IMG/VR virus record: IMGVR_UViG_2857398645_000001
Source: a virus
Lineage: Duplodnaviria > Caudoviricetes
DNA length: 64,000 bases
Direction: 5' to 3' (one strand)
Each line of letters opens with the position of its first letter. Position 1 is the stretch's first letter. The notes beneath the pieces are model-generated. The model searched no databases, had not been told where the DNA came from, and saw only the letters and a program-made list of their open reading frames with translations. This document shows positions 3,064 to 13,457 of the stretch, in pieces. The translations under genes and the position numbers were made by a program.

Positions 3064-4257
3064 CTATGCTGCTTGGAGTCGGTCCACGTCCTGCCGGAGC
3101 CGCCGCAGCGCCCGGTACACCTTGGGAATGTGGATGGGGTCGCCGACGATCGGGGTGATGGTCTGCCCGTGGTCGGGGGTGCGCCGGTAGACGACCTCGC
3201 GGATCACGTCCTGCACCGGGCCGCGGTCGGTCAGGAACGTCACCCGGTCGCCGAGGTCGACGTCCCTCCCCCACTGGATGCCCTCGGTGCCCAGCAGCTC
3301 GAACGCGACGGTTTGGGTGCCGGCGGCTTCGGCGAACCGCTCGTCGGCGAGCTGCCGTGTGGCTTCGTCGGGTGGCCGCCACTGGTCGTCGTCTTCGGAT
3401 TCGGGTTTTTCGGCGAGGTCACGCTGGTCGACGAATTCTTCGAGGCGCAGGTTCGGGAACAGCGGGGAGGTTCGGGAGTACTCGAAGAGGAGCCGGTCCT
3501 TGCCCTCCCCGCCGCACCCGTAGACCAGGTGGGTGACCTCGGGCGGGGTGAGCTCGTAGGTGTAGCTGCTGACGTTGCCGAGCTCCACCCCGAACGCCAC
3601 ATCTGAGGTGAGGTCGCGCGGCTCGTAGTACTCGAACACCAGCTCTGTTGCGTGTTGGAGGATGCGCCACCCCACCCCCGCCCCGTTCGCGACGGCGAAA
3701 AGGTGCTCGTGCAGGTCGGTGAACCGCTCCGCGCTGGCCAGCCGGGGGCCGCGGCCCTGCGATACGGGGACCGTCAGGCCGGGGTGGCGTCGGGTGCGAA
3801 GGGCGGCGGGACCGGCGTGGCGGGACAGGACGGTGCTGATGACGGTCTCAGCCGGGCCGCGGATGGTTTCCCGGTCGGTGGGGTGTTTGACGCCCTTCGG
3901 GGTGATGGGGGCCAGGTGGGACGGGTAGATGACGCGGCGGAAACCGGTGGTGTCGCAGGCCCCGGTTGCGGTGATAGTGCCCGCGCCGGTGGGGTTGGTG
4001 GTTCCGGCGTCCTGGGTGCCGGTTTCGTCGGTGATGTGGGTGATGGGGCCGGAGAACACCACTCGGCCGTCGACCTCGAAACTGATGCCTTCCCCTGTGT
4101 CGAGAAGTTCGGCCGACGGGGTGCCTGCTGCGACGGCGATCTTCCATGACCCGGCTGCGAGGTGACGGGCGTGGATTTCGAGGTCGTGCTCGTCGTCGAT
4201 CTCACCAGTGAAGTCACGGTCGTGATTGCGGACGCGGATGGCCCATTCCTCCCGCAC
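3064..4257 (-). CDS. Siphovirus Gp37-like minor tail protein
   Basis: GPAETVI, GGEGKDR, EEFVDQRD, WGRDVDLGDRV motifs; start could extend to 4293. Confidence 0.8.
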   Translation of the reverse strand: MREEWAIRVRNHDRDFTGEIDDEHDLEIHARHLAAGSWKIAVAAGTPSAELLDTGEGISFEVDGRVVFSGPITHITDETGTQDAGTTNPTGAGTITATGACDTTGFRRVIYPSHLAPITPKGVKHPTDRETIRGPAETVISTVLSRHAGPAALRTRRHPGLTVPVSQGRGPRLASAERFTDLHEHLFAVANGAGVGWRILQHATELVFEYYEPRDLTSDVAFGVELGNVSSYTYELTPPEVTHLVYGCGGEGKDRLLFEYSRTSPLFPNLRLEEFVDQRDLAEKPESEDDDQWRPPDEATRQLADERFAEAAGTQTVAFELLGTEGIQWGRDVDLGDRVTFLTDRGPVQDVIREVVYRRTPDHGQTITPIVGDPIHIPKVYRALRRLRQDVDRLQAA

Positions 4258-5837: not shown

Positions 5838-5907
5838 GCGTAAAGGTTAGGTTGGATTGGCCCCCTCGTGAGGAATTTCTAGGAAATTCACCAGCGCGCA
5901 CCATGCG

Positions 5908-6873
5908 TCAGCACGTAGCAGCGATTGGTGTGTAGCGGAGAACAAGTCGGGAATTATCGGACATCTGTCCCGTCTCGGCATCGATGGTGTTGTCTCCTGG
6001 CCGTAGCGGCCACAGCGTTGAACCGGGCTGGGTGAGGTAACGGTAGGCGTTGGCCCCGTCCAACCGCACGGACTTGCGGCGGGGCCGGGTGTCGATGACC
6101 AGCGTCTCCCCCTCACCGATGGCACGGTCGATCTCCAGCCACTTCCCCGTCGTCCGGTTGGCCAGCCGCACCCCCGGCCCCAGCGGGCCCTTGAGTTCCC
6201 ACACCGGCCAGGTGCGCACCCCTCCCTCGATGCGGATGGGCATGCCGGGGCCGATCGCGGTGGAGTCGCGGACACGCACCGGCAGGATCGGCAACCAGGT
6301 GCCGTCGTCGCCGGTGGGGCCTCGGTAGATGAGTTCCACCGGATCCAGCTCCCAGTACGGTTGCTCGCACCTGAACTTCAGCCCGAGCGTGGCCCAGGTG
6401 AGGCCTTCGTGGTCGCGGCCCATGTCGCCCTCCGCGCCGCCCTCGTAGTGGGCTGTGATGCGGCGCCGGGTGCCGTCGAACTCGGTGACAGTGATCGTCC
6501 CGGCCCCACCCCCGTGGGCGGGGAACGGGTCGAGATCCCTGGCGAGGGCGCGGCGCCGGTCGATGATGTCGCGGCGTGATTCCCCGTGGACCCTGATAGG
6601 GAGGAAGACCTCCCGGGGCAGTGCGCGCACCCCGGCCACCTGGTCGCCGTCGAGCACCCCGGACTCGCGCCTGTAGTACTCGTACTCCGGCATGCCCAGC
6701 CCGCGGGCACCGTCGAGCAGCGTGCACCCGCCTGCCCAGTCGGAGAGCACCGTCACCCGCCCGGCGGCCGATGTCCAGGTGATGCGGGTGGTGTAGTCGA
6801 CGGGCCGAACCCACCCGGGTGGCCTGCCCCCACCGCCGGTCTCGGGGGGTGGGGGCAGGTAGATGATCGGCAC
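5908..6873 (-). CDS. Distal tail protein (Dit-like)
   Basis: Directly after tape measure; RGLGMP, REVFLPI, LWPLRPGDN motifs. Confidence 0.85.
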   Translation of the reverse strand: MPIIYLPPPPETGGGGRPPGWVRPVDYTTRITWTSAAGRVTVLSDWAGGCTLLDGARGLGMPEYEYYRRESGVLDGDQVAGVRALPREVFLPIRVHGESRRDIIDRRRALARDLDPFPAHGGGAGTITVTEFDGTRRRITAHYEGGAEGDMGRDHEGLTWATLGLKFRCEQPYWELDPVELIYRGPTGDDGTWLPILPVRVRDSTAIGPGMPIRIEGGVRTWPVWELKGPLGPGVRLANRTTGKWLEIDRAIGEGETLVIDTRPRRKSVRLDGANAYRYLTQPGSTLWPLRPGDNTIDAETGQMSDNSRLVLRYTPIAATC

Positions 6874-6877
6874 GCTC

Positions 6878-9800
6878 TCACCTCACTGTCGGGTGCAGGG
6901 CCTCGTAGTCCCGCAACGCGGTGACGACCTGGCGGGCCGTGGACCGGGGCGCCCGGGTTTCGGTGATGTGGAAGGTGTGGCCCTCCCGGGCGGCCGGCTC
7001 CCTGTTCCGGTCGGCTCGGATGTCGGCCCACTGCTCCCGGGTGAGCACCGGCTCCGGGCCACCAGTGGCATTGGCCACCAGGTTCAGCCCCGGGGGCAGC
7101 CACCCGCCGTCGTCATACAGCGTCGGCACACCTATCGACGCGCGCAGCGCCTGGGTGAGCAGCGGCGTCGTCGCCGCCGTGTTGTCCGCGCGGTCCTGGA
7201 GGAGGAAGTCCTTCCAGTCGATGATGCCGCCAGTGGCCATGGCCTTGGGCCGCAGGATCGCGGTGGCGGAGTTGACGTACCCCTTGTTGATGCGGACCGC
7301 GTTCGACTCGTTGCCGCCCACCGTGGTGTTGCGGTCGACCACGATGTTGATGTGGCCGTTTCCGCGGTAGGTGGCGAGGTCACCGGTCCGCCGCTCGCTC
7401 AACGGAACATGCTTCATTCCCCCGTTGAACGATGCGACGGCTGCCGACCAGATGTTGTTGTACCGGTCGGCGACCTTCGCGTCCTTGATGATCTTGGACA
7501 CGAACATGGCGCACCACGGCAGGCCGTTCATTCCGAACGCCCGGGTGAACTCGTTGGAGTAGTCCGAGCCGCCGAAGTTGCCGACCTTGGACTTCGCGAG
7601 CTTGATCATGCTGCCGAAGTCGCCGCCGAGCTTCGGCTCGATGACCTTGCCCAACCAGGAGGTCAGGCCGCTGATCATCGACTTGGGTAGTTTCGCCACG
7701 GCGTCGCCGAAGCGGCCCATGCGGCCGCCGCCGATCGCCGCCAGGGTCTCCCCCACCAGCGGGTCCAACGCGGCCTTGGCGGTCTTTTTCAGCCCGCCGG
7801 TGAACCCGTCCGTGGCGGCCCTGGCGAAGCTGCCGATGCGGTCGAGGATGCCGCCGTTGGCGAACGCCTGGTGGGGGACCATCCCGGACAGGGCGTTGCG
7901 CACCCCGGCGGTGCCTCCGCTGCGGGCGGCCGAGTTGATCGCGTTGACCCACCCGGGACCCACAGCTGCGGTGAATTCGGGGCGCATGACGGATTCGCCG
8001 CCGGACAGGTCGAGAATTCCGCCTGTCGGTGAGAAGAACCGGTGCACGTCCTTGCCGGGGGTGTACCCTGGAAGTGTGCCGCCGTCAGCGAATGCCATCC
8101 GAGAGAGCTTGTCCATTTTGACAAGCCCAGCGACCTTGTTCCAAACCGCTCGGATACCGTTGTTATAGACGGTGTCCACAACGAATTGGACCGGTTTCTT
8201 CGTGGCAGACCGGATCTTATCCCAAGCAGTCTTGATGCCCTGCTGCGCCCGTTCGAAAGCCCTGATGCTCTTCGCGCGGAAATCCTCGAACACCTTGACT
8301 GTTCGGTCGCGGAGTGATGACGCCCGCTGCGCCACCCAATCCCGAAGTGTCGCGACCAGCTGAGCGGGTTTATCCCGCACCGCAGTGAAGATCGAAACTG
8401 TTTTGTTCCGCAAGTCCGCGTAGGTGGAAACCGCCCGGTCACGAAGCGACACCGCGCGCTGAACGACCTGGTCACGCATGCCCTGCACACGGCTGATCGC
8501 GTCATCGCGCAAACCGGTGAAGAGCCCGACCACGCGGTTCTTCAGATCGACCGCTGTCTGCACCATGTCATCGCGAAGTTCAGCGAACTTCGAACCGACT
8601 TCGGAGACCTTGGAAGAGATCGCCTGACCGACCAGCGACATCAGCCCGGTGAACTTCTCAGTCAGCCATTTACCGAGCTCGAAGACAATGACACCGAGAA
8701 CATAGAGAACAGCGGCCGCCACCCCGAGCAGAAGCGCGGGGATACCAGCGACGACCACCGCGACCGCGATCCCCAGGCCAGCGAGGATCTTCGGCCCCCA
8801 CTCGGCCAGCCAATCGACGATATTCGCCGCGTTATCAACAGCGGAACTGAGTTTCGCGGGAAGTTCTTTCGCCCACTCAACAGCGGAATCCGCTAGCCCA
8901 CGCAGTTTCTCAAGCGCTTTGTCTTTAAGCCCGTCGACCCATTCGACAATGGCGCCTGTGTCGATCGCTTCGCTGATCTTTCCGGGGATCGACTTGACCC
9001 GATCGACAATGGACTGCGCGAACCCAGTCAGGTGCTCGTGGGCTTTGCCGGGCAGCTCCTTCAGCCACTCCAGCGCCGCGTCGCCGATCTCCGAGACACG
9101 CGGCCCGACCCGCCCTGGGAGCTCGGTGGCCCACGCGATGATGTCGTCGCCCAGCCCGGTCAGCCACCCGGCGATGTCCTGCCCTATGCGGGTGAGGTTG
9201 TCCAGGTCGAGGATCCCGGCCAGCAGATCCATGAGCCCCTGGCCGAGGTCGACCATGGCGTCGTAGAACCGGGCGGGCAGGTCGCCGGCCCACGCCACCA
9301 GGTCGTCGCCGCGGGCTTTGAGCCAGTCAGCGGCCTGCGCACCGGCGTCCTGCAACGCGGTGACAATCTCGGAGAAGCTGGGCGGGTCGGTGAAGACGCC
9401 GACCAGGGCGTCCCACCCGTCGACGAGGGCGTCCCACGCCGCAGACGAGGCGTCGACGACCCAGTCCCAGCCCGCGACGATGGCATCCCAGGTGACCTGG
9501 CACGCCCACACCACGGGTTGGAGGACCGACATGATCGCCGCGCCCATGGCGTTGAGCCCGTCGCGGAACCACTCGCAGTGCTGGTAGGCCTCGTAGATGG
9601 CCACCCCGAGCAGCACCAGGCCGGTGATGATCAGCCCGACCGGGTGGGCATTCCAGGCGACATTCAACGCCCACTGGGCCGCGGTCCACGCCAGGGTGGT
9701 GCCGCGAACGATCTTGACCCACGTGTTGTAGGCCTTCATGCCGAGGACGCTGCGGCCCTGGGCGGTGGCCTGCTGGTTCCACAGGAGGGTTTGGGAGCGG

Positions 9801-11665
9801 ATGGCCGCGCTCAGCCGGGTGGCCAGCGGGGCGCCTGTGGCCATCGCAGTGTTGATGTTGGTCCAGCCGCGCCGGAAGTTCCCGAGCGTGGTCGCGGCCG
9901 CGGCGGCAGCCCCCGCTGTGCGGTTGATGCCGGTCGTCAGCAGCCCGACCGTGGTCACGACTTTGCCGCCGACCCACACCATGGGGCCGATCGCGGCCAC
10001 GACCATGCCGATCGTGGTGGCGGTGGACAGCAGCTCGGGGTTGGTGTGCGCCAGGTCTTGGAGTCCGACCGTCAGCCACTTCACCCGGTCGGTGGCCTGC
10101 TCCAGCATCCCGGAGTCGCCGATCGCGATCAGCAGGCCCTCCAGGGCGGATTTCAGTTCCGCTAGGGCCCCGTTGAGGCCCTGCATCTGGATGTCGGCGA
10201 TGTCCTGGGCAGTGCCCCCGGCGCCCTCCAGCTCGGTGGTGAGATCCGAAAGCGCCCCGGAACCCTGCTCCAGCAGCGCGGACATGCCCGGCCCGGCCTC
10301 CAGGCCGAAAATGGTGAGCATGTCGGCCGTGGAGGCCCCCGAATGCTCCAGTTGGCCGATGATGTCGACCAAAGGAAGCATCTGCCCGGTGGAGTCAGCG
10401 ACAGACACTCCGAGCTCGTCAAGGGTGTCCTTGACCGCGCCGGTCGGCTTCAGGAGGCGGCTGATCGCCCCGCGCAGCACGGTCCCGGCCTGTTCGCCCT
10501 GGATACCGGCGTTGCCGAGCAGGCCGACCGCAGCCGAAACCTCTTCGAACTGCAATCCGGCGGACTTAGCGACCGGGCCGATGTACTTGAACGAGTCGCC
10601 GAGCATCCGCATGTTGACGTTCGAGGACGTGAACGTCTTGGCGAGGACATCGTTGACCCTGGTCAGGTCGCTGGCGGCGAACCCGTACCCGGTGAGGATG
10701 TTGGAGGCGATGTCGGCCGCGTCCGCCAGGTCCAGCTGGCCGGCTGCCGCCAAGTCCAACGTTCCGGGAAGGGCGGTGAGGATGTCGTTGGCGTCGAACC
10801 CCGCCATGGCCAGGTAGCCCATGGCGTCGGCGGCCTGGGAGGCCGAGTACTGGGTGGACGCGCCGAGCTGCTGGGCCAGGCCCCTCAGCTGGGAGAACTG
10901 GTCGCCAGTGGCACCGGAAACCGCGCGGACGCGGTTCATGGACGACTCGAAGTCCCCGGCGGTGGACAGCATCACCCCGGAGGCCGCCACCAGCGGGACC
11001 GTCATCCTGGTCGTGGCCGACCGGCCGACCGCCGCCATCTCGTCCCCGGCCGACCGCCACGCCCGCCCCGCCTCGGCGACACCTTCGGAGGAAGCGGCGG
11101 TGATCGCCCCACCCACAGCCCCGGACAGGGCGGAGGTGATCGCGGGACCGGCCTTGGCGATGACACCGCCGAGGTCGCGGGTCGAGCGGGCCAGCGCTGC
11201 CGACAGGGCGGCCCCACCTGCCGACCCGGCGCGGGTGCCCTGGGCCGACATGGCGGCCGGGAGGGTGCGCTCGGTGGACTGGGCGACGGCCTGGACTGCG
11301 GCGCGGGTGGCGGCCTGGGTGGAGGCGGTCAGGGCGGCCCCCATGGACCGGTCCACCGCACGGGCCGCCGAGGACGACAGGGTTTCCCCGGCGCGCGCCC
11401 CGGCCGCCCCCATCGCTGAGGGCATGGCGGTGGTGGCGGCGCGCCCGGCCGCCTTCGCGGTCTTCTCCCCCGCCTCGCTGGCGGCCTTGGCGGCGGTGCG
11501 GGACACTTCCCGGCCAGCGGCGTCGGTGATGCCTGATCCGAGGCGGGTGCCGGTGGTGGTGGCGGCTTTCGCGGCGGCGCGGGTCGCCTCGGCCCCCAGC
11601 CGTTTGGAGAAGTCGCGCATGGACGGCAGGACGTTGAGCCAGACGGCGCCGACAGTGGAGGCCAC
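6878..11665 (-). CDS. Tape measure protein (TP901-type core) with C-terminal CHAP-like peptidase domain
   Basis: FESSMNRVRAVSGAT, AADAMGYLAMAG, LGNAGIQGEQAGT; Trp-periodic repeats; PWCAMFVS..GHINIV..GGNESNAV; GTG after GGGAGG. Confidence 0.95.
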   Translation of the reverse strand: MASTVGAVWLNVLPSMRDFSKRLGAEATRAAAKAATTTGTRLGSGITDAAGREVSRTAAKAASEAGEKTAKAAGRAATTAMPSAMGAAGARAGETLSSSAARAVDRSMGAALTASTQAATRAAVQAVAQSTERTLPAAMSAQGTRAGSAGGAALSAALARSTRDLGGVIAKAGPAITSALSGAVGGAITAASSEGVAEAGRAWRSAGDEMAAVGRSATTRMTVPLVAASGVMLSTAGDFESSMNRVRAVSGATGDQFSQLRGLAQQLGASTQYSASQAADAMGYLAMAGFDANDILTALPGTLDLAAAGQLDLADAADIASNILTGYGFAASDLTRVNDVLAKTFTSSNVNMRMLGDSFKYIGPVAKSAGLQFEEVSAAVGLLGNAGIQGEQAGTVLRGAISRLLKPTGAVKDTLDELGVSVADSTGQMLPLVDIIGQLEHSGASTADMLTIFGLEAGPGMSALLEQGSGALSDLTTELEGAGGTAQDIADIQMQGLNGALAELKSALEGLLIAIGDSGMLEQATDRVKWLTVGLQDLAHTNPELLSTATTIGMVVAAIGPMVWVGGKVVTTVGLLTTGINRTAGAAAAAATTLGNFRRGWTNINTAMATGAPLATRLSAAIRSQTLLWNQQATAQGRSVLGMKAYNTWVKIVRGTTLAWTAAQWALNVAWNAHPVGLIITGLVLLGVAIYEAYQHCEWFRDGLNAMGAAIMSVLQPVVWACQVTWDAIVAGWDWVVDASSAAWDALVDGWDALVGVFTDPPSFSEIVTALQDAGAQAADWLKARGDDLVAWAGDLPARFYDAMVDLGQGLMDLLAGILDLDNLTRIGQDIAGWLTGLGDDIIAWATELPGRVGPRVSEIGDAALEWLKELPGKAHEHLTGFAQSIVDRVKSIPGKISEAIDTGAIVEWVDGLKDKALEKLRGLADSAVEWAKELPAKLSSAVDNAANIVDWLAEWGPKILAGLGIAVAVVVAGIPALLLGVAAAVLYVLGVIVFELGKWLTEKFTGLMSLVGQAISSKVSEVGSKFAELRDDMVQTAVDLKNRVVGLFTGLRDDAISRVQGMRDQVVQRAVSLRDRAVSTYADLRNKTVSIFTAVRDKPAQLVATLRDWVAQRASSLRDRTVKVFEDFRAKSIRAFERAQQGIKTAWDKIRSATKKPVQFVVDTVYNNGIRAVWNKVAGLVKMDKLSRMAFADGGTLPGYTPGKDVHRFFSPTGGILDLSGGESVMRPEFTAAVGPGWVNAINSAARSGGTAGVRNALSGMVPHQAFANGGILDRIGSFARAATDGFTGGLKKTAKAALDPLVGETLAAIGGGRMGRFGDAVAKLPKSMISGLTSWLGKVIEPKLGGDFGSMIKLAKSKVGNFGGSDYSNEFTRAFGMNGLPWCAMFVSKIIKDAKVADRYNNIWSAAVASFNGGMKHVPLSERRTGDLATYRGNGHINIVVDRNTTVGGNESNAVRINKGYVNSATAILRPKAMATGGIIDWKDFLLQDRADNTAATTPLLTQALRASIGVPTLYDDGGWLPPGLNLVANATGGPEPVLTREQWADIRADRNREPAAREGHTFHITETRAPRSTARQVVTALRDYEALHPTVR

Positions 11666-11684
11666 CCCCGCACCTCCCCTTTTC

Positions 11685-12108
11685 CTACTGGTCGTGGTTG
11701 CGGGAGTGGGCGGGGGTGAGCCGGGCCACCATCGCCTCATAGCCGTCGCGCAGCGCCTGCGCCTGCTCCTCGCGGGCAGCCTGCTCGGCCTCGTCCGTGG
11801 GGCGCGGCACCGGATCGGGGCGTTTGATCGCCCGCGGATTCTTCGCGTTGACCGCGGCGGTCAGGGTGGCGTGCTCCCGCACCGCGTCCGTGATCGCCGC
11901 CAGCAGGTAGGTGTCATCCGACCAGGTGTGGCCGCGCGCTGACCGGTGCAGCGCGGAGTCCGGCGGCAGGTGCTCCACCAGGACACGCAACTGCCGCAGG
12001 GTGATCTCACCCCGGAAGTACTCGGCTACCGCGTCGCGGTGGTACTCGGCGATGAGCGCCGCCTCCACCGCCTCGGGGTGGTCGCCCAGGAGGTCTAGGA
12101 CCGTGTAG
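11685..12108 (-). CDS. Tail assembly chaperone, second (frameshift) ORF
   Basis: ITLRQLRVLVEHLPPDS motif; open in -1 frame from the CGC CCT codons of the upstream chaperone; boundary approximate. Confidence 0.75.
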
Positions 12109-12433
12109 GGCGCCCGTCCACCAGCTCGTCCTGAAGGCTGGCGTTGACATCGAGGAAGACCAGCATGACGTCAGCGTCACGATGCTCGGGGTGGGCGATG
12201 AACTGCTCGTACTGGTCGCCCAGGATCGCGCGGGCCTTGTCGGAGGTGGTCTTGGCGGCGTCGAAGGCCTCGCTCCACTCGTCGTCGGCGAACAGCGGGT
12301 GCGGGAAAGCGTAGGTTTCCCCGTCCTCACCGTCGAAAGCGACCTTGGCCTCGTCGTCCAGGCCCAGGGTTTCGGTGTACTTGCGGCGCACCGCGGCGAG
12401 GGTGCGGCGGGTCTTGCGGTTCTTCTCAGCCAC
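12095..12433 (-). CDS. Tail assembly chaperone
   Basis: Position; FPHPLFADDEW and ARAILGDQYEQF motifs; ends RPTRS. Confidence 0.8.
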   Translation of the reverse strand: MAEKNRKTRRTLAAVRRKYTETLGLDDEAKVAFDGEDGETYAFPHPLFADDEWSEAFDAAKTTSDKARAILGDQYEQFIAHPEHRDADVMLVFLDVNASLQDELVDGRPTRS

Positions 12434-12450: not shown

Positions 12451-12717
12451 CTACTTCTTCTTGGGGATGGCGGGTTCCAGGTCCGCCGACTCCGGCGAGA
12501 TGTGCAGGGTCTCGGGATCGGGCTCGGTGACGGTCACCTCGGCGGTGGCCTCCAGGCCCCTATAGGTGGCGGTGATCGTCGCCTCACCGGGGGCCACGGC
12601 GGTGGCCGTCCCGGTCTTGTCCACGGTGGCCACACTGGTGTCCGAGCTGGACCAGTCCGCGTCAGCGGTGACATCACCGTGGTTGGTGGTGGCGGTGAAC
12701 TGGCGGGTGGAAGCCAT
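12451..12717 (-). CDS. Stand-alone Ig-like (Big_2) protein, circularly permuted
   Basis: QFTAT..WSSSDTSVATVD..GTATAVAPGEATITATY; own RBS GGAGGG; first-strand-like TLHISPESADL lies at the C-terminus. Confidence 0.85.
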   Translation of the reverse strand: MASTRQFTATTNHGDVTADADWSSSDTSVATVDKTGTATAVAPGEATITATYRGLEATAEVTVTEPDPETLHISPESADLEPAIPKKK

Positions 12718-12800
12718 AGGTGTCCCCTCCAGGGGTGGTGTGCGGTTGGTGGTCGCCCAGCCCACTCACACGGTGAGCCGGACCTCGCGGGGCGCCACCC

Positions 12801-13457
12801 TCAGGAAGAAGGGTCCGGCCGCCCACCAGCGAGTTCACGCCACCCGGGGCCATCCAGCCAATTCAGGACGTCCGTGCCGAACACCGGGTCCATGTAGGCC
12901 TTGACAGTGGTCTCATAGCCGGTCGCGTCAGAGCGCGACTCCTGGGCGCCGCCCACGTCGGTCACCGCGCCGCGCGGGAACAGGCGCGCCCGGACACGCT
13001 CCTGGCCGGTGGTCTTCGACCGGTCAGAAGCGAGGAACAACCACCGCCGGTCAACGGTCGGCGGAACAGCGGGCTTGGCCCACCGCAGCGGCTTGCCCAG
13101 GTCAGTGCCCAGTTCGTCGAACTGCAACCCCTCGTACAGGGCGATGGACACCGGGCTGGTTTCGAGCATGGTGAACTTCGCTGTCTGGGTGTCGCTGTTG
13201 ATGTCGTCGCGCACCGAGGTCGCTTCCTGGGCGGCCTTGGTCTCGGCCAGGTCCCGGTCCCGGTCATGCGTGGTGCCGTCCTCACCGGTGTAGCCCACCG
13301 GGTACCAGCCCTCGGGCAGCGGCTCCAGCTCCCCCGTGTCCGGATCGAACAGCTGGTCAGGCACAGGGGTGGTGTAAGAGGCGACGAACACCGCGGTGAA
13401 CAGGCCCTTGAAAACGAGGTCCTTGTTGACGGTGTAGAGGCTCGCCACGTCGGGCAA
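12801..13457 (-). CDS. Major tail (tube) protein
   Basis: GWYPVGYTGEDG, FTMLETS, YETTVKAYMDP motifs; position. Confidence 0.88.
   Translation of the reverse strand: MPDVASLYTVNKDLVFKGLFTAVFVASYTTPVPDQLFDPDTGELEPLPEGWYPVGYTGEDGTTHDRDRDLAETKAAQEATSVRDDINSDTQTAKFTMLETSPVSIALYEGLQFDELGTDLGKPLRWAKPAVPPTVDRRWLFLASDRSKTTGQERVRARLFPRGAVTDVGGAQESRSDATGYETTVKAYMDPVFGTDVLNWLDGPGWRELAGGRPDPSS

Follow-up and report, generated by a model that had tools for sequence, protein, structure and literature searches.

A putative two-part Ig-like decoration system in actinobacterial siphophages, with a frameshift-encoded anchor strand and a permuted Big_2 protein

Results

Genes and features of the tail locus

The window, the whole stretch of 64,000 nucleotides of phage DNA analysed here, contains a free immunoglobulin-like (Ig) gene between the major tail gene and the genes that precede the tape measure gene (Table 1). 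The product of the major tail gene (tail tube) matched Pfam Phage_TTP_17 (E = 3e-11) and the major tail protein family phrog_476 (E = 9e-50). Searching with this protein by tblastn gave 307 phage records, and the matches listed were annotated as major tail proteins; a first scan of viral contigs with the single tail protein as the query gave no match. The two ORFs downstream of the Ig gene (11685..12433) had no significant match in Pfam and were assigned as a putative tail assembly chaperone pair by their position.

Table 1. Positions of the genes and sequence features in the window
Feature	Position	Strand	Basis or remark
Major tail (tail tube) protein gene, 218 aa	12801..13457	-	0-frame TGA stop at 12801..12803
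Candidate -1 slip heptamer C_CCT_TCT	12807..12813	-	0 frame Pro-Ser; -1 frame CCC TTC
-1 frame anchor: Pro-Phe-Phe and 12 codons beyond the 0-frame stop	12766..12813	-	Big_2 strand A/A'; TGA at 12766..12768
Stem-loop	12748..12799	-	RNAfold MFE; 5' arm from 12799; 3' arm 12748..12758, one bulge
Spacer from anchor stop to Ig start	12718..12765	-	Shine-Dalgarno GGAGGGG at 12724..12730
Free Ig ORF, 88 aa	12451..12717	-	Pfam Big_2; stop 12451..12453
Ig core, residues 1-64, Big_2 strands B to G	12526..12717	-	Pfam, AlphaFold2, Foldseek
Ig C-terminal tail, residues 65-88: Pro/Glu linker and strand-A/A'-like peptide	12454..12525	-	Alignment, hhalign
Two ORFs, tail assembly chaperone pair by position	12095..12433 and 11685..12068	-	Order tail tube, ORF pair, tape measure matches the P318 annotation
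Tape measure gene	6878..11740	-	Follows the chaperone-pair ORFs

The Ig gene encodes a circularly permuted Big_2 domain

The Ig protein belongs to the Big_2 family (PF02368; E = 1.9e-10, 41 bits against a cut-off of 22.8). The match spanned only positions 19-70 of the 79 positions of the profile; the first strand is therefore missing, and the polypeptide does not hold a complete A-to-G domain. The best Foldseek matches of the core were Big_2 domains of LigA/LigB, mycobacteriophage Douge and lambda gpV. The last core strand is followed by 24 residues with the pattern hydrophobic-x-hydrophobic-x-Pro-x4-hydrophobic. When a profile of 28 such tails was compared with 13 complete Big_2 domains, it aligned to columns 1-16, which correspond to strand A/A' (hhalign P = 6.9e-5, probability 63%), and none of the 13 complete domains carried a comparable C-terminal tail. 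The C-terminal segment is thus homologous to the native N-terminal segment, and since the protein lacks strand A and carries a strand-A-like peptide at its C-terminus, it is a circular permutant cut exactly at the loop of the A'-B turn. The initial annotation had read the gene as beginning at the second Big_2 strand and as bearing a first-strand-like peptide after its last strand, and both readings were borne out.

The same architecture was found in a family of 28 free permuted Ig proteins of 82-93 residues, which share 42-76% identity with the window protein and have unchanged boundaries. The tail was kept in 28/28 with an invariant Pro, which is followed by eight residues in 19 of the 28 tails, and in 27 proteins strand B is preceded by only one or two residues; the remaining one, P0061, has a recorded start that lies a few residues further on. 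The family includes a homologue from Nocardiopsis rhodophaea (P0002). Among protein representatives, a profile of four permuted sequences aligned contiguously (positions 3-83 of 85) across the boundaries of tandem Big_2 domains, and this search was dominated by giant tandem Big_2 proteins; a search of genome contigs with a two-sequence Ig alignment matched nothing beyond generic Big_2 domains from bacteria such as Paenibacillus.

The monomer predicted by AlphaFold2 was folded without strand A, with a pLDDT of ~93-95 over residues 11-60. Since the core was folded so confidently in this state, the model does not point to a requirement for a donor strand. The tail of the model formed no strand and was disordered (pLDDT ~61-72), and the Ig protein therefore appears not to be self-completed, as the initial annotation had expected. 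The reading in which the tail folds into the strand-A groove of its own chain to give a stable monomer, with the peptide encoded at the end of the tail gene (see below) as a competitor or an irrelevance, is quite improbable. The strand-A pattern in the tail would fit it, and circular permutants that arise by duplication and truncation often fold alone, but the tail is unstructured in the predicted monomer and the linker from the last core strand to the tail strand has only 5-9 residues (median 6, n = 28) and is rich in Pro and Glu. An Ig domain begins at one pole and ends at the other, so a linker of this length probably cannot span the domain in the native orientation and is probably too short for the tail to reach its own groove.

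A conserved heptamer and stem-loop at the end of the tail gene

The major tail gene ends in GAC CCT TCT TCC TGA on the minus strand, and its -1 frame continues past this stop to the TGA listed in Table 1, exactly as had been proposed. The heptamer CCCTTCT within this end occurs once in the window. It does not have the canonical X_XXY_YYZ form: the Pro tRNA in the P-site could re-pair after a slip, while the A-site tRNA could do so only with a G-U pair in the middle. Both of its 0-frame codons are rare in six genes of the window phage (CCT, 7/107 Pro codons; TCT, 11/158 Ser codons). An identical heptamer was found at the equivalent place in L053, L055, L062, L092, L121, L179, L196 (twice) and L218 as well as in the tail gene of Thermobifida phage P318, so that 11 cassettes share it, namely the ten used in the stem analysis and the P318 tail gene. 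The slip site of the P318 capsid gene, C_CCA_AAT, is canonical. A +1 shift at TCC_TGA was also considered and rejected, the sequence in that frame being not Ig-like.

In addition to the conservation of the site, a functional product of the shifted frame is expected of a programmed -1 signal, and two relatives encode one. Both L092, of the same tail-tube family as the window, and L179, of the Phage_TTP_16 family, share the heptamer and the 0-frame stop with the window, and their -1 frame encodes a complete Big_2 domain of 85 residues, which could not be made without a slip.

Downstream of the heptamer, a stem-loop was predicted in the window that begins after 7 nt, within the 5-9 nt spacing of programmed -1 signals, and encloses the coding region of the anchor. 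The stem lies 7 nt downstream in 10/10 CCCTTCT cassettes; it is a perfect stem of 8-9 bp in seven of them, with four different covarying arm pairs, and an equivalent stem is present at both slip sites of P318. Taken alone, the window stem has a fold energy that is ordinary against shuffled sequences (z = -0.87). The stems were identified sequence by sequence with RNAfold; RNAalifold run on a MAFFT alignment missed them because the loop lengths differ.

The slip region and the stem might instead mainly control how the Ig gene is expressed, by acting on mRNA stability, by attenuation or by coupling termination to reinitiation, with the -1 peptide as a by-product. The stems of L055, L121 and L196 agree with such a role, since their 3' arms start within 2-3 nt of the -1 stop, past it and upstream of the Ig ribosome-binding site. 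However, the heptamer and stem are also present in L092 and L179, where the whole Ig domain is in the -1 frame and no downstream gene is left to regulate, and at two sites followed by unrelated genes (the L196 capsid site and the P318 tail site), which makes a purely regulatory hairpin very improbable.

The -1 frame encodes a strand-A peptide

The -1 frame peptide, referred to here as the anchor, aligns with strand A of the Big_2 domain that is fused in frame to the tail protein of L054 and of the domain completed by frameshift in L092. In the window the shifted frame ends after strand A, so that a single strand is encoded in place of the whole Ig domain seen in L092 and L179. Eight of nine anchors end 7-9 residues after the conserved Pro, which is the same point where the Ig tails end; in the exception, L218, the -1 ORF continues for 35 residues. 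The comparative evidence thus supports well the equivalence of the -1 peptide and the Ig tail that the initial annotation had drawn from an alignment of the two.

In the window, the -1 frame and the Ig ORF share a reading frame and are separated by TGA and 48 nt. Similar-length spacers, each with its own ribosome-binding site and an ATG, GTG or TTG start, were found in L053, L055, L062, L121, L196 and P318. That the Ig ORF might be reached by read-through of the -1 stop was ruled out by L053, in which the -1 peptide and the Ig gene are in different frames, so that read-through is not the common mechanism, and by L062, which has a second in-frame stop. The single-chain read-through product was modelled by AlphaFold2, from an alignment in which strand A had been trimmed from the rows of the complete domains, with a strand at residues 15-20 at low confidence (pLDDT 37-49 there, mean 66), so that the model lends no support to a pairing of anchor and Ig protein.

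The anchor accompanies the permuted Ig gene on tail and capsid carriers

The split arrangement was found in eight loci from independent assemblies: the window, L053, L055, L062, L121, L196, L218 and phage P318. In all eight, the permuted Ig gene is immediately preceded by a gene whose 3' end holds a slip site (CCCTTCT in seven, C_CCA_AAT at the P318 capsid gene) and a -1 frame strand-A peptide. Among 37 viral or metagenomic loci with relatives of the tail tube protein, CCCTTCT stood at the stop in two, and these two were also the only loci in which a Big_2 pattern followed within 700 nt downstream. An 18-nt motif scan of IMG/VR gave 50 loci, six of which were judged to be cassettes on reading (L179, L196 with two sites, L200, L210, L212 and L218); the others look like chance, some tens of chance matches being the rough expectation. 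The motif matches L224, L225 and L226 (in G430, G432 and G000) were rejected as chance.

The carriers of the anchor cassette belong to two tail-tube families and a major capsid family. The carrier in L121 is a major capsid protein (Phage_cap_E, E = 1e-31), and both the provirus G464 (L196) and phage P318 have anchors on the capsid gene as well as on the tail gene, together with a single Ig gene. The initial annotation had placed the display on the tail specifically, a restriction that has to be dropped. It had also asked whether homologues conserve the -1 peptide wherever the permuted Ig gene is present, and all eight split loci do.

Two explanations without a present function for the anchor have to be weighed against this distribution. 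In the first, the Ig protein binds the virion through its surface, and the -1 peptide and slip signal are functionless relics of a frameshift fusion. The confident AlphaFold2 core without strand A could be cited for it, as could the fact that an open ORF of 12 codons is unsurprising in GC-rich DNA. Selection on the -1 peptide was also clear in only one of ten pairs, L053 and L055, with a synonymous excess in the -1 frame (pS 0.46, pN 0.08), the remaining pairs being saturated or reversed. (The anchor nucleotides are also under constraint from the RNA stem.) On the other hand, every split cassette retains the heptamer and a covarying stem, on carriers of little or no similarity; the co-occurrence of slip site and Ig gene is strict; the anchors stop, with the one exception, where the Ig tails stop; and two different phages have second anchors that no Ig gene follows, which are hard to explain as relics. 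A vestigial anchor is therefore rather unlikely.

In the second, the locus is either a product of faulty assembly or a tail-Ig fusion that mutation has recently broken in a prophage undergoing decay. Fusions of this kind do exist among the relatives, both in frame (L054) and completed by frameshift (L092, L179), and the L053 Ig gene contains an internal frameshift. That part of the objection, which the initial annotation had itself raised, stands, but a recent break does not: the eight split loci are independent and each has its own ribosome-binding site and start codon, the 28 free proteins have diverged within the same boundaries, and the split form is present in the cultured, plaque-forming phage P318, with its Ig protein in the virions (see below). 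Sequence comparison shows the split form to be long established, widely distributed and conserved, and decay or artefact is extremely improbable.

The permuted Ig protein of phage P318 was detected in virions

The permuted Ig protein of P318 (ORF22) was detected by LC-MS/MS in virions purified by gel filtration, with 18% coverage (PMC6893835). The same preparation also contained three nucleotide-metabolism enzymes (PMC6893835), so the detection of ORF22 is no proof of specific binding. The LC-MS/MS search in that study was confined to predicted ORFs, and neither "frameshift" nor "Ig-like" occurs as a word in the paper (PMC6893835); a frameshift product has been observed nowhere. The host of P318 is a harmless thermophile. 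The Ig protein of the window is a candidate virion decoration.

Together with the slip site and its covarying stem, the relatives with a whole Ig domain, the co-occurrence and the capsid anchors, the virion detection makes the proposal that a -1 frameshift would add the donor strand only, as first put forward in the initial annotation, well supported on comparative grounds.

Discussion

Proposed mechanism and its implications

These features are probably best explained as a two-part, snap-together Ig decoration system of actinobacterial siphophages, in which an anchor strand made by frameshift and a permuted Ig protein complete one fold in trans. A fraction of ribosomes would slip by -1 at C_CCU_UCU at the end of the tail gene, as the comparative evidence suggests, aided perhaps by the two rare codons and by the stem-loop 7 nt downstream. 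The slipped subunits would carry an extension of ~15 residues, corresponding to strand A/A' of a Big_2 domain, as the anchor. The next gene, from its own ribosome-binding site, would supply the 88-residue Big_2 protein, without strand A but with a second strand-A-like peptide at its end, and this free protein may take the anchor strand into its open groove. The anchor cassette would be portable, and one Ig gene could serve anchors on both head and tail.

The least certain step is that the Ig tail may fill the groove of another copy of the Ig protein. The outcome would be either the capping of unassembled subunits or the extension of head-to-tail Ig chains from each anchor, the latter resembling the pilus-like chains that the initial annotation had proposed for the tail tube. 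That the permuted Ig protein polymerises by donating its C-terminal strand to the next copy, and so forms non-covalent, bead-on-string fibres of open length seeded on capsid and tail anchors by slippage, is possible but doubtful.

We found no publication describing a strand-only anchor with a permuted Ig protein. If the two-part system is real, it represents a new principle for the attachment of virion decorations, by completion of a fold rather than by recognition of a surface. Splitting the gene would let one small gene serve head and tail carriers, separate the dose, and possibly allow a fibre to be extended. If chains are formed as well, a gene of ~270 nt would build fibres; this would be a natural tag and catcher dosed by recoding, a viral donor-strand exchange without chaperone or usher, and possibly a general, overlooked way to decorate virions. 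About 30 proteins of phages and prophages of Nocardiopsis, Streptomyces, Actinoalloteichus and Thermobifida, now named "Ig-like domain-containing" or "hypothetical", could be reannotated, and unannotated recoding sites are flagged in the capsid and tail genes of those phages. A natural pair of peptide tag and catcher on assembled capsids and tails could suit phage display. Phage P318 makes the system testable, as a cultured phage for which virion proteomics already exists.

Comparison with known systems

Fraser et al. are said to have surveyed the Ig-like domains of phages in 2006, and to our knowledge the Ig domains added by frameshift have been known since that year, always as whole domains. 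Programmed frameshifting that appends Ig-like domains to capsid or tail proteins is reported for T3 gene 10, Lactobacillus phage A2 and Listeria phages A118, A500 and PSA in a review (Atkins et al. 2016, PMC5009743). Of the relatives described here, L092 and L179 conform to this kind. The split system shares with it the slip site at the extreme 3' end of a major capsid or tail gene, the Big_2-type domain, the service of capsid and tail of one phage, the movement of the domain among unrelated carriers, and the coexistence of in-frame, -1 and +1 solutions among relatives. It differs in that the shifted frame holds one strand only instead of the whole domain, the remainder being made as a protein of its own, permuted and with one strand to spare.

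Decoration proteins such as lambda gpD, T4 Hoc and Soc, and T5 pb10 bind after assembly. Like them, the protein described here would be a small accessory protein on the outside of the virion, Ig-like as some of them are, and probably non-essential. We know of no decoration protein reported to need a strand of its carrier, the known ones being complete folds on capsid surface sites.

In chaperone-usher pili (Fim, Pap, Caf1), pilins that lack the last strand G are completed by donor-strand complementation and exchange with an N-terminal donor extension. Strand complementation of F1/Caf1 is mentioned in PMC3708895. As in these pili, an Ig-like subunit without one strand would be completed by a strand of another polypeptide, and a groove and a donor strand in one subunit can polymerise. 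Unlike a pilin, the window protein lacks the first strand A, its donor strand is C-terminal, and its Big_2 domain is unrelated to pilins in sequence; neither a chaperone or usher nor a secretion signal was seen among the window ORFs and the P318 annotations looked at.

Closer in polarity are the type V pili of Bacteroidia (FimA/Mfa1), which are assembled by protease-mediated strand exchange: the mature subunit lacks its N-terminal strand, and the C-terminal strand of a neighbouring subunit fills the groove. The polarity of strand donation proposed here is the same. The groove is opened there by proteolysis of a lipoprotein precursor, whereas here it is opened genetically by the splitting of the gene, and the first donor would be a frameshift product of a virion protein.

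The engineered counterpart is SpyTag/SpyCatcher, a man-made split of the Ig-like domain CnaB2 that is locked by an isopeptide bond. In both, a peptide of ~13-15 residues represents one Ig-like strand and docks the remainder of the domain onto any carrier. In the phage system no isopeptide chemistry is indicated, and the tag would be delivered by recoding, which would also set its stoichiometry.

Organization of the split Ig domain in the window

The Ig domain encoded in the window was divided between two genes, which lie, like all genes of interest there, on the minus strand. The tail ORF, whose product had tblastn matches in 307 phage records (those listed being annotated as major tail proteins), ends with GAC CCT TCT TCC TGA. 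The peptide read in the -1 frame past this 0-frame stop, referred to as the anchor, carried the pattern hydrophobic-x-hydrophobic-x-Pro-x4-hydrophobic, which was also found in the 24-residue tail beyond the last core strand of the 88-aa Ig protein. Since the Pfam Big_2 match of the latter was confined to profile positions 19-70 of 79, the protein begins at the second strand. The initial annotation had described the end of the tail gene, its -1 frame, the strand-B start and the tail pattern, and these observations were correct in every detail.

An alternative Ig ORF of 104 aa (12451..12765) starts with GTG directly after the -1 stop; as this GTG has no Shine-Dalgarno sequence and the extra N-terminal stretch is unconserved in relatives, translation probably starts at the ATG at 12717. 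The two ORFs at the chaperone position (11685..12433) had no significant Pfam family for either, and their overlap suggests the usual G/GT frameshift.

Features of the window and putative frameshift sites of the cultured Thermobifida phage P318
Feature	Coordinates	Strand	Basis
Major tail (tail tube) protein, 218 aa	12801..13457	minus	Pfam Phage_TTP_17, E 3e-11; phrog_476 'major tail protein', E 9e-50
-1 frame of tail gene, 12 open codons beyond the 0-frame stop, then TGA	12766..12768 (TGA)	minus	Translation
Spacer, 48 nt, between -1 stop and Ig ATG, with Shine-Dalgarno GGAGGGG	12724..12730 (Shine-Dalgarno)	minus	Sequence
Permuted Ig ORF, 88 aa	12451..12717	minus	Pfam Big_2, E 1.9e-10
Two ORFs, tail assembly chaperone pair by position	12095..12433; 11685..12068	minus	ORF list, position
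Tape measure gene	6878..11740	minus	ORF list
P318 putative frameshift sites (locus L227)	3398..3494 (orf21, C_CCA_AAT); 5890..5960 (orf27, C_CCT_TCT)		Stem-loop and -1 strand-A peptide at each

The family of permuted Ig proteins

A profile of four split-type sequences, searched against 5.8 billion proteins, added about 25 free proteins, 82-93 aa long, whose sources were Nocardiopsis, Actinoalloteichus, Streptomyces and metagenomes. Among 28 aligned free permuted Ig proteins (42-76% identity to the window protein), strand B started after one or two residues in 27, the other (P0061) as recorded beginning a few residues later, and the tail was present in all 28 with its proline invariant. The linker preceding the tail strand was 5-9 residues long (median 6, n = 28), and exactly 8 residues followed the tail proline in 19/28 members. 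Compared with 13 complete Big_2 domains, none of which had such a tail, the tail profile matched columns 1-16, corresponding to strand A/A' (hhalign P 6.9e-5, probability 63%). The A'-B turn of a complete domain was recreated by the tail end together with the protein start, and the four-sequence profile matched contiguously (positions 3-83 of 85) across the repeat boundaries of giant tandem Big_2 proteins. Because the tail maps to strand A/A', the turn is recreated and the alignment crosses repeat boundaries, the permuted Ig protein amounts to one tandem-Big_2 repeat unit with its register shifted by one strand. Such a permutation is the expected outcome of a tandem domain duplication in which translation then came to begin past the first strand A and to end past the second.

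AlphaFold2 modelling of the 88-aa protein from a 6-row alignment gave high confidence for the core (pLDDT 93-95, residues 11-60), whose Foldseek neighbours were the Big_2 domains of Leptospira LigA/LigB, virion proteins of mycobacteriophage Douge and lambda gpV. The tail was unstructured (pLDDT 61-72) and formed no strand, and because of this the Ig monomer is not predicted to complete itself; a self-completed monomer was the outcome that the initial annotation had set against its own proposal. In a single-chain fold reading through the -1 stop, for which table 4 served as a device only and strand A was trimmed from the complete rows against bias, the mean pLDDT was 66, and a strand at residues 15-20 appeared only at pLDDT 37-49.

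Whole-domain and split relatives

Searches of related genomes yielded four close tail-tube relatives, all in one genus, and others came from IMG/VR and metagenome contigs. In one relative (L054, genome G362) a complete Big_2 domain lies in frame on the tail protein, and the window anchor aligned with its first strand. In another (L092) the CCCTTCT heptamer and a TGA likewise close the tail gene, and a complete Big_2 domain of 85 aa is encoded in the -1 frame; since this domain can be made only by a -1 shift at the heptamer, the arrangement is the classical one. It was also found on another tail-tube family, Phage_TTP_16 (L179). As judged from these alignments, the window anchor appears to be the ancestral first strand of a Big_2 domain. 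Neither an Ig gene nor the heptamer was present in L056 or in six further loci with 52-54% identity.

Within the same bacterial family, another tail-tube family, unrelated to the first (L041, L042 and L044; genomes G072, G104 and G174), carries a complete Big_2 domain in frame at the C-terminus and lacks both the tail and the slip site. In L070 (IMGVR_UViG_2654587880_000002), a tail-tube relative with 36% identity, the in-frame C-terminal extension is a different one of ~100 residues, Gly/Thr-rich and not Big_2-like in appearance.

The exact architecture of the window was found in L053 (G432), L055 (G430) and L062 (an IMG/VR contig). In each, the heptamer and 0-frame stop come with a -1 strand-A peptide that has its own stop and with a spacer of 50-70 nt, followed by an Ig ORF that has its own ribosome-binding site, a GTG or TTG start, a strand-B beginning and a strand-A-like tail. 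The split form is thus conserved across loci, which ruled out a recent break of an ordinary tail-Ig fusion, an explanation that the initial annotation had also raised. In L053 the Ig ORF and the -1 peptide are in different frames, and stop-codon read-through is therefore excluded as the common mechanism. Among tail-tube relatives from viral and metagenome sequences (37 loci), CCCTTCT occurred at the stop in two, and only the same two had a Big_2 pattern within 700 nt downstream. The split arrangement is real, conserved and unannotated.

The permuted Ig gene of L053 (G432:C1) contains an internal frameshift mid-domain; as the genome is only 84% complete, an assembly indel and a decaying copy are both possible explanations. 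In L218 (IMGVR_UViG_3300009095_000170, 12478..12713) a split-type cassette was seen in which the -1 ORF continues 35 residues past the slip site, the Ig gene begins in another frame and the contig ends within it.

Frameshift signal

C_CCT_TCT was identical in all CCCTTCT cassettes and occurred once in the window. It is not a canonical X_XXY_YYZ site; the P-site Pro tRNA would slip from CCU to CCC while the A site waits on UCU. In six window phage genes, CCT made up 7/107 Pro codons, TCT 11/158 Ser codons and TTC 68/70 Phe codons. A stem began 7 nt past the heptamer in 10/10 cassettes and was perfect over 8-9 bp in seven; among these there are four different arm pairs, some with a G-U pair, in which the changes are compensatory. 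The window stem has one bulge and a folding energy that did not stand out from shuffles (z -0.87), and the case for the stem is therefore made by comparison and not from the window by itself. Nei-Gojobori counts over the 11-12 codons beyond the 0-frame stop, nucleotides that the stem also constrains, gave a synonymous excess in the -1 frame only for L053 versus L055 (pS 0.46, pN 0.08); in the remaining nine of ten pairs it was not seen, the counts being uninformative or reversed.

Portability and virion detection

The cassette is not confined to tail genes. In provirus G465 (L121) the carrier upstream of the permuted Ig gene is a major capsid protein (Phage_cap_E, E 1e-31), whose gene closes with these same elements (heptamer, stop, -1 strand-A peptide and stem), and the tail gene has no anchor. 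Provirus G464 (L196/L229) has the heptamer and the -1 strand-A peptide twice, at the end of its capsid gene (Phage_cap_E, phrog_29) and at the end of its tail gene (Phage_TTP_17, phrog_117), and the single permuted Ig gene lies behind the tail gene. P318 (MK240575.1), which alone among 50,697 phage records gave a permuted-type match (two queries), is the mirror image. Its permuted Ig gene orf22 lies behind the capsid gene orf21, which ends with a canonical C_CCA_AAT, a strong stem and a -1 strand-A peptide; its tail gene orf27 ends with CCCTTCT, an 8-bp stem and a -1 strand-A peptide, and the chaperone genes come directly next. Both putative P318 frameshift sites are unannotated in the GenBank record. 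The anchor stop lay 7-9 residues after the conserved proline, as in the Ig tails, in eight of nine anchors, L218 being the exception. The strongest argument that the anchor acts together with a protein made elsewhere comes from two different phages in which an anchor has no Ig gene behind it.

According to PMC6893835, LC-MS/MS of gel-filtration-purified P318 virions covered 18% of ORF22, called hypothetical by its authors, 47% of the capsid protein and 31% of the tail protein; 'frameshift' and 'Ig-like' have no occurrence in that paper. Three metabolic enzymes were also found (PMC6893835), and the preparation was therefore not perfectly clean.

Proposed mechanism

The split and permuted architecture is conserved, its recoding signal is conserved too, it moves between carriers, and one homologue was detected in virions. 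In the mechanism we propose, -1 frameshifting would add strand A to a minority of carrier subunits, and the free Ig protein would bind by taking this strand into its own groove. Such a donor-strand anchor, put forward in the initial annotation, is well supported by comparison, namely by the conserved split loci, the slip signal and the anchors without an adjoining Ig gene. An Ig domain has its N- and C-termini at opposite poles; with a linker of only 5-9 Pro/Glu-rich residues, insertion of the tail in cis looks sterically unlikely, and its donation to a second copy would be the natural outcome, though a less certain one. Strand donation may produce head-to-tail Ig chains seeded at each anchor, or transiently cap unassembled subunits; the role of the Ig protein's own tail, including fibre growth, is less certain than the anchor.

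Comparison with known systems

Full-text literature searches, mostly outside subscription journals, turned up neither a split Ig domain nor a donor strand described for phage virions; the cultured phage P318 makes the split-Ig finding directly testable. The addition of whole Ig-like domains to capsid or tail proteins by programmed frameshift is established for T3, A2, A118, A500 and PSA, as stated in PMC5009743. L092 and L179 are ordinary members of this group, whereas in the window only one strand is appended and the remainder of the domain is a separate permuted protein. Donor-strand complementation builds chaperone-usher pili, and C-terminal strand donation occurs in type V pili. These two, together with engineered tag/catcher pairs, are the nearest mechanistic analogues of the window system, none of them being a relative.
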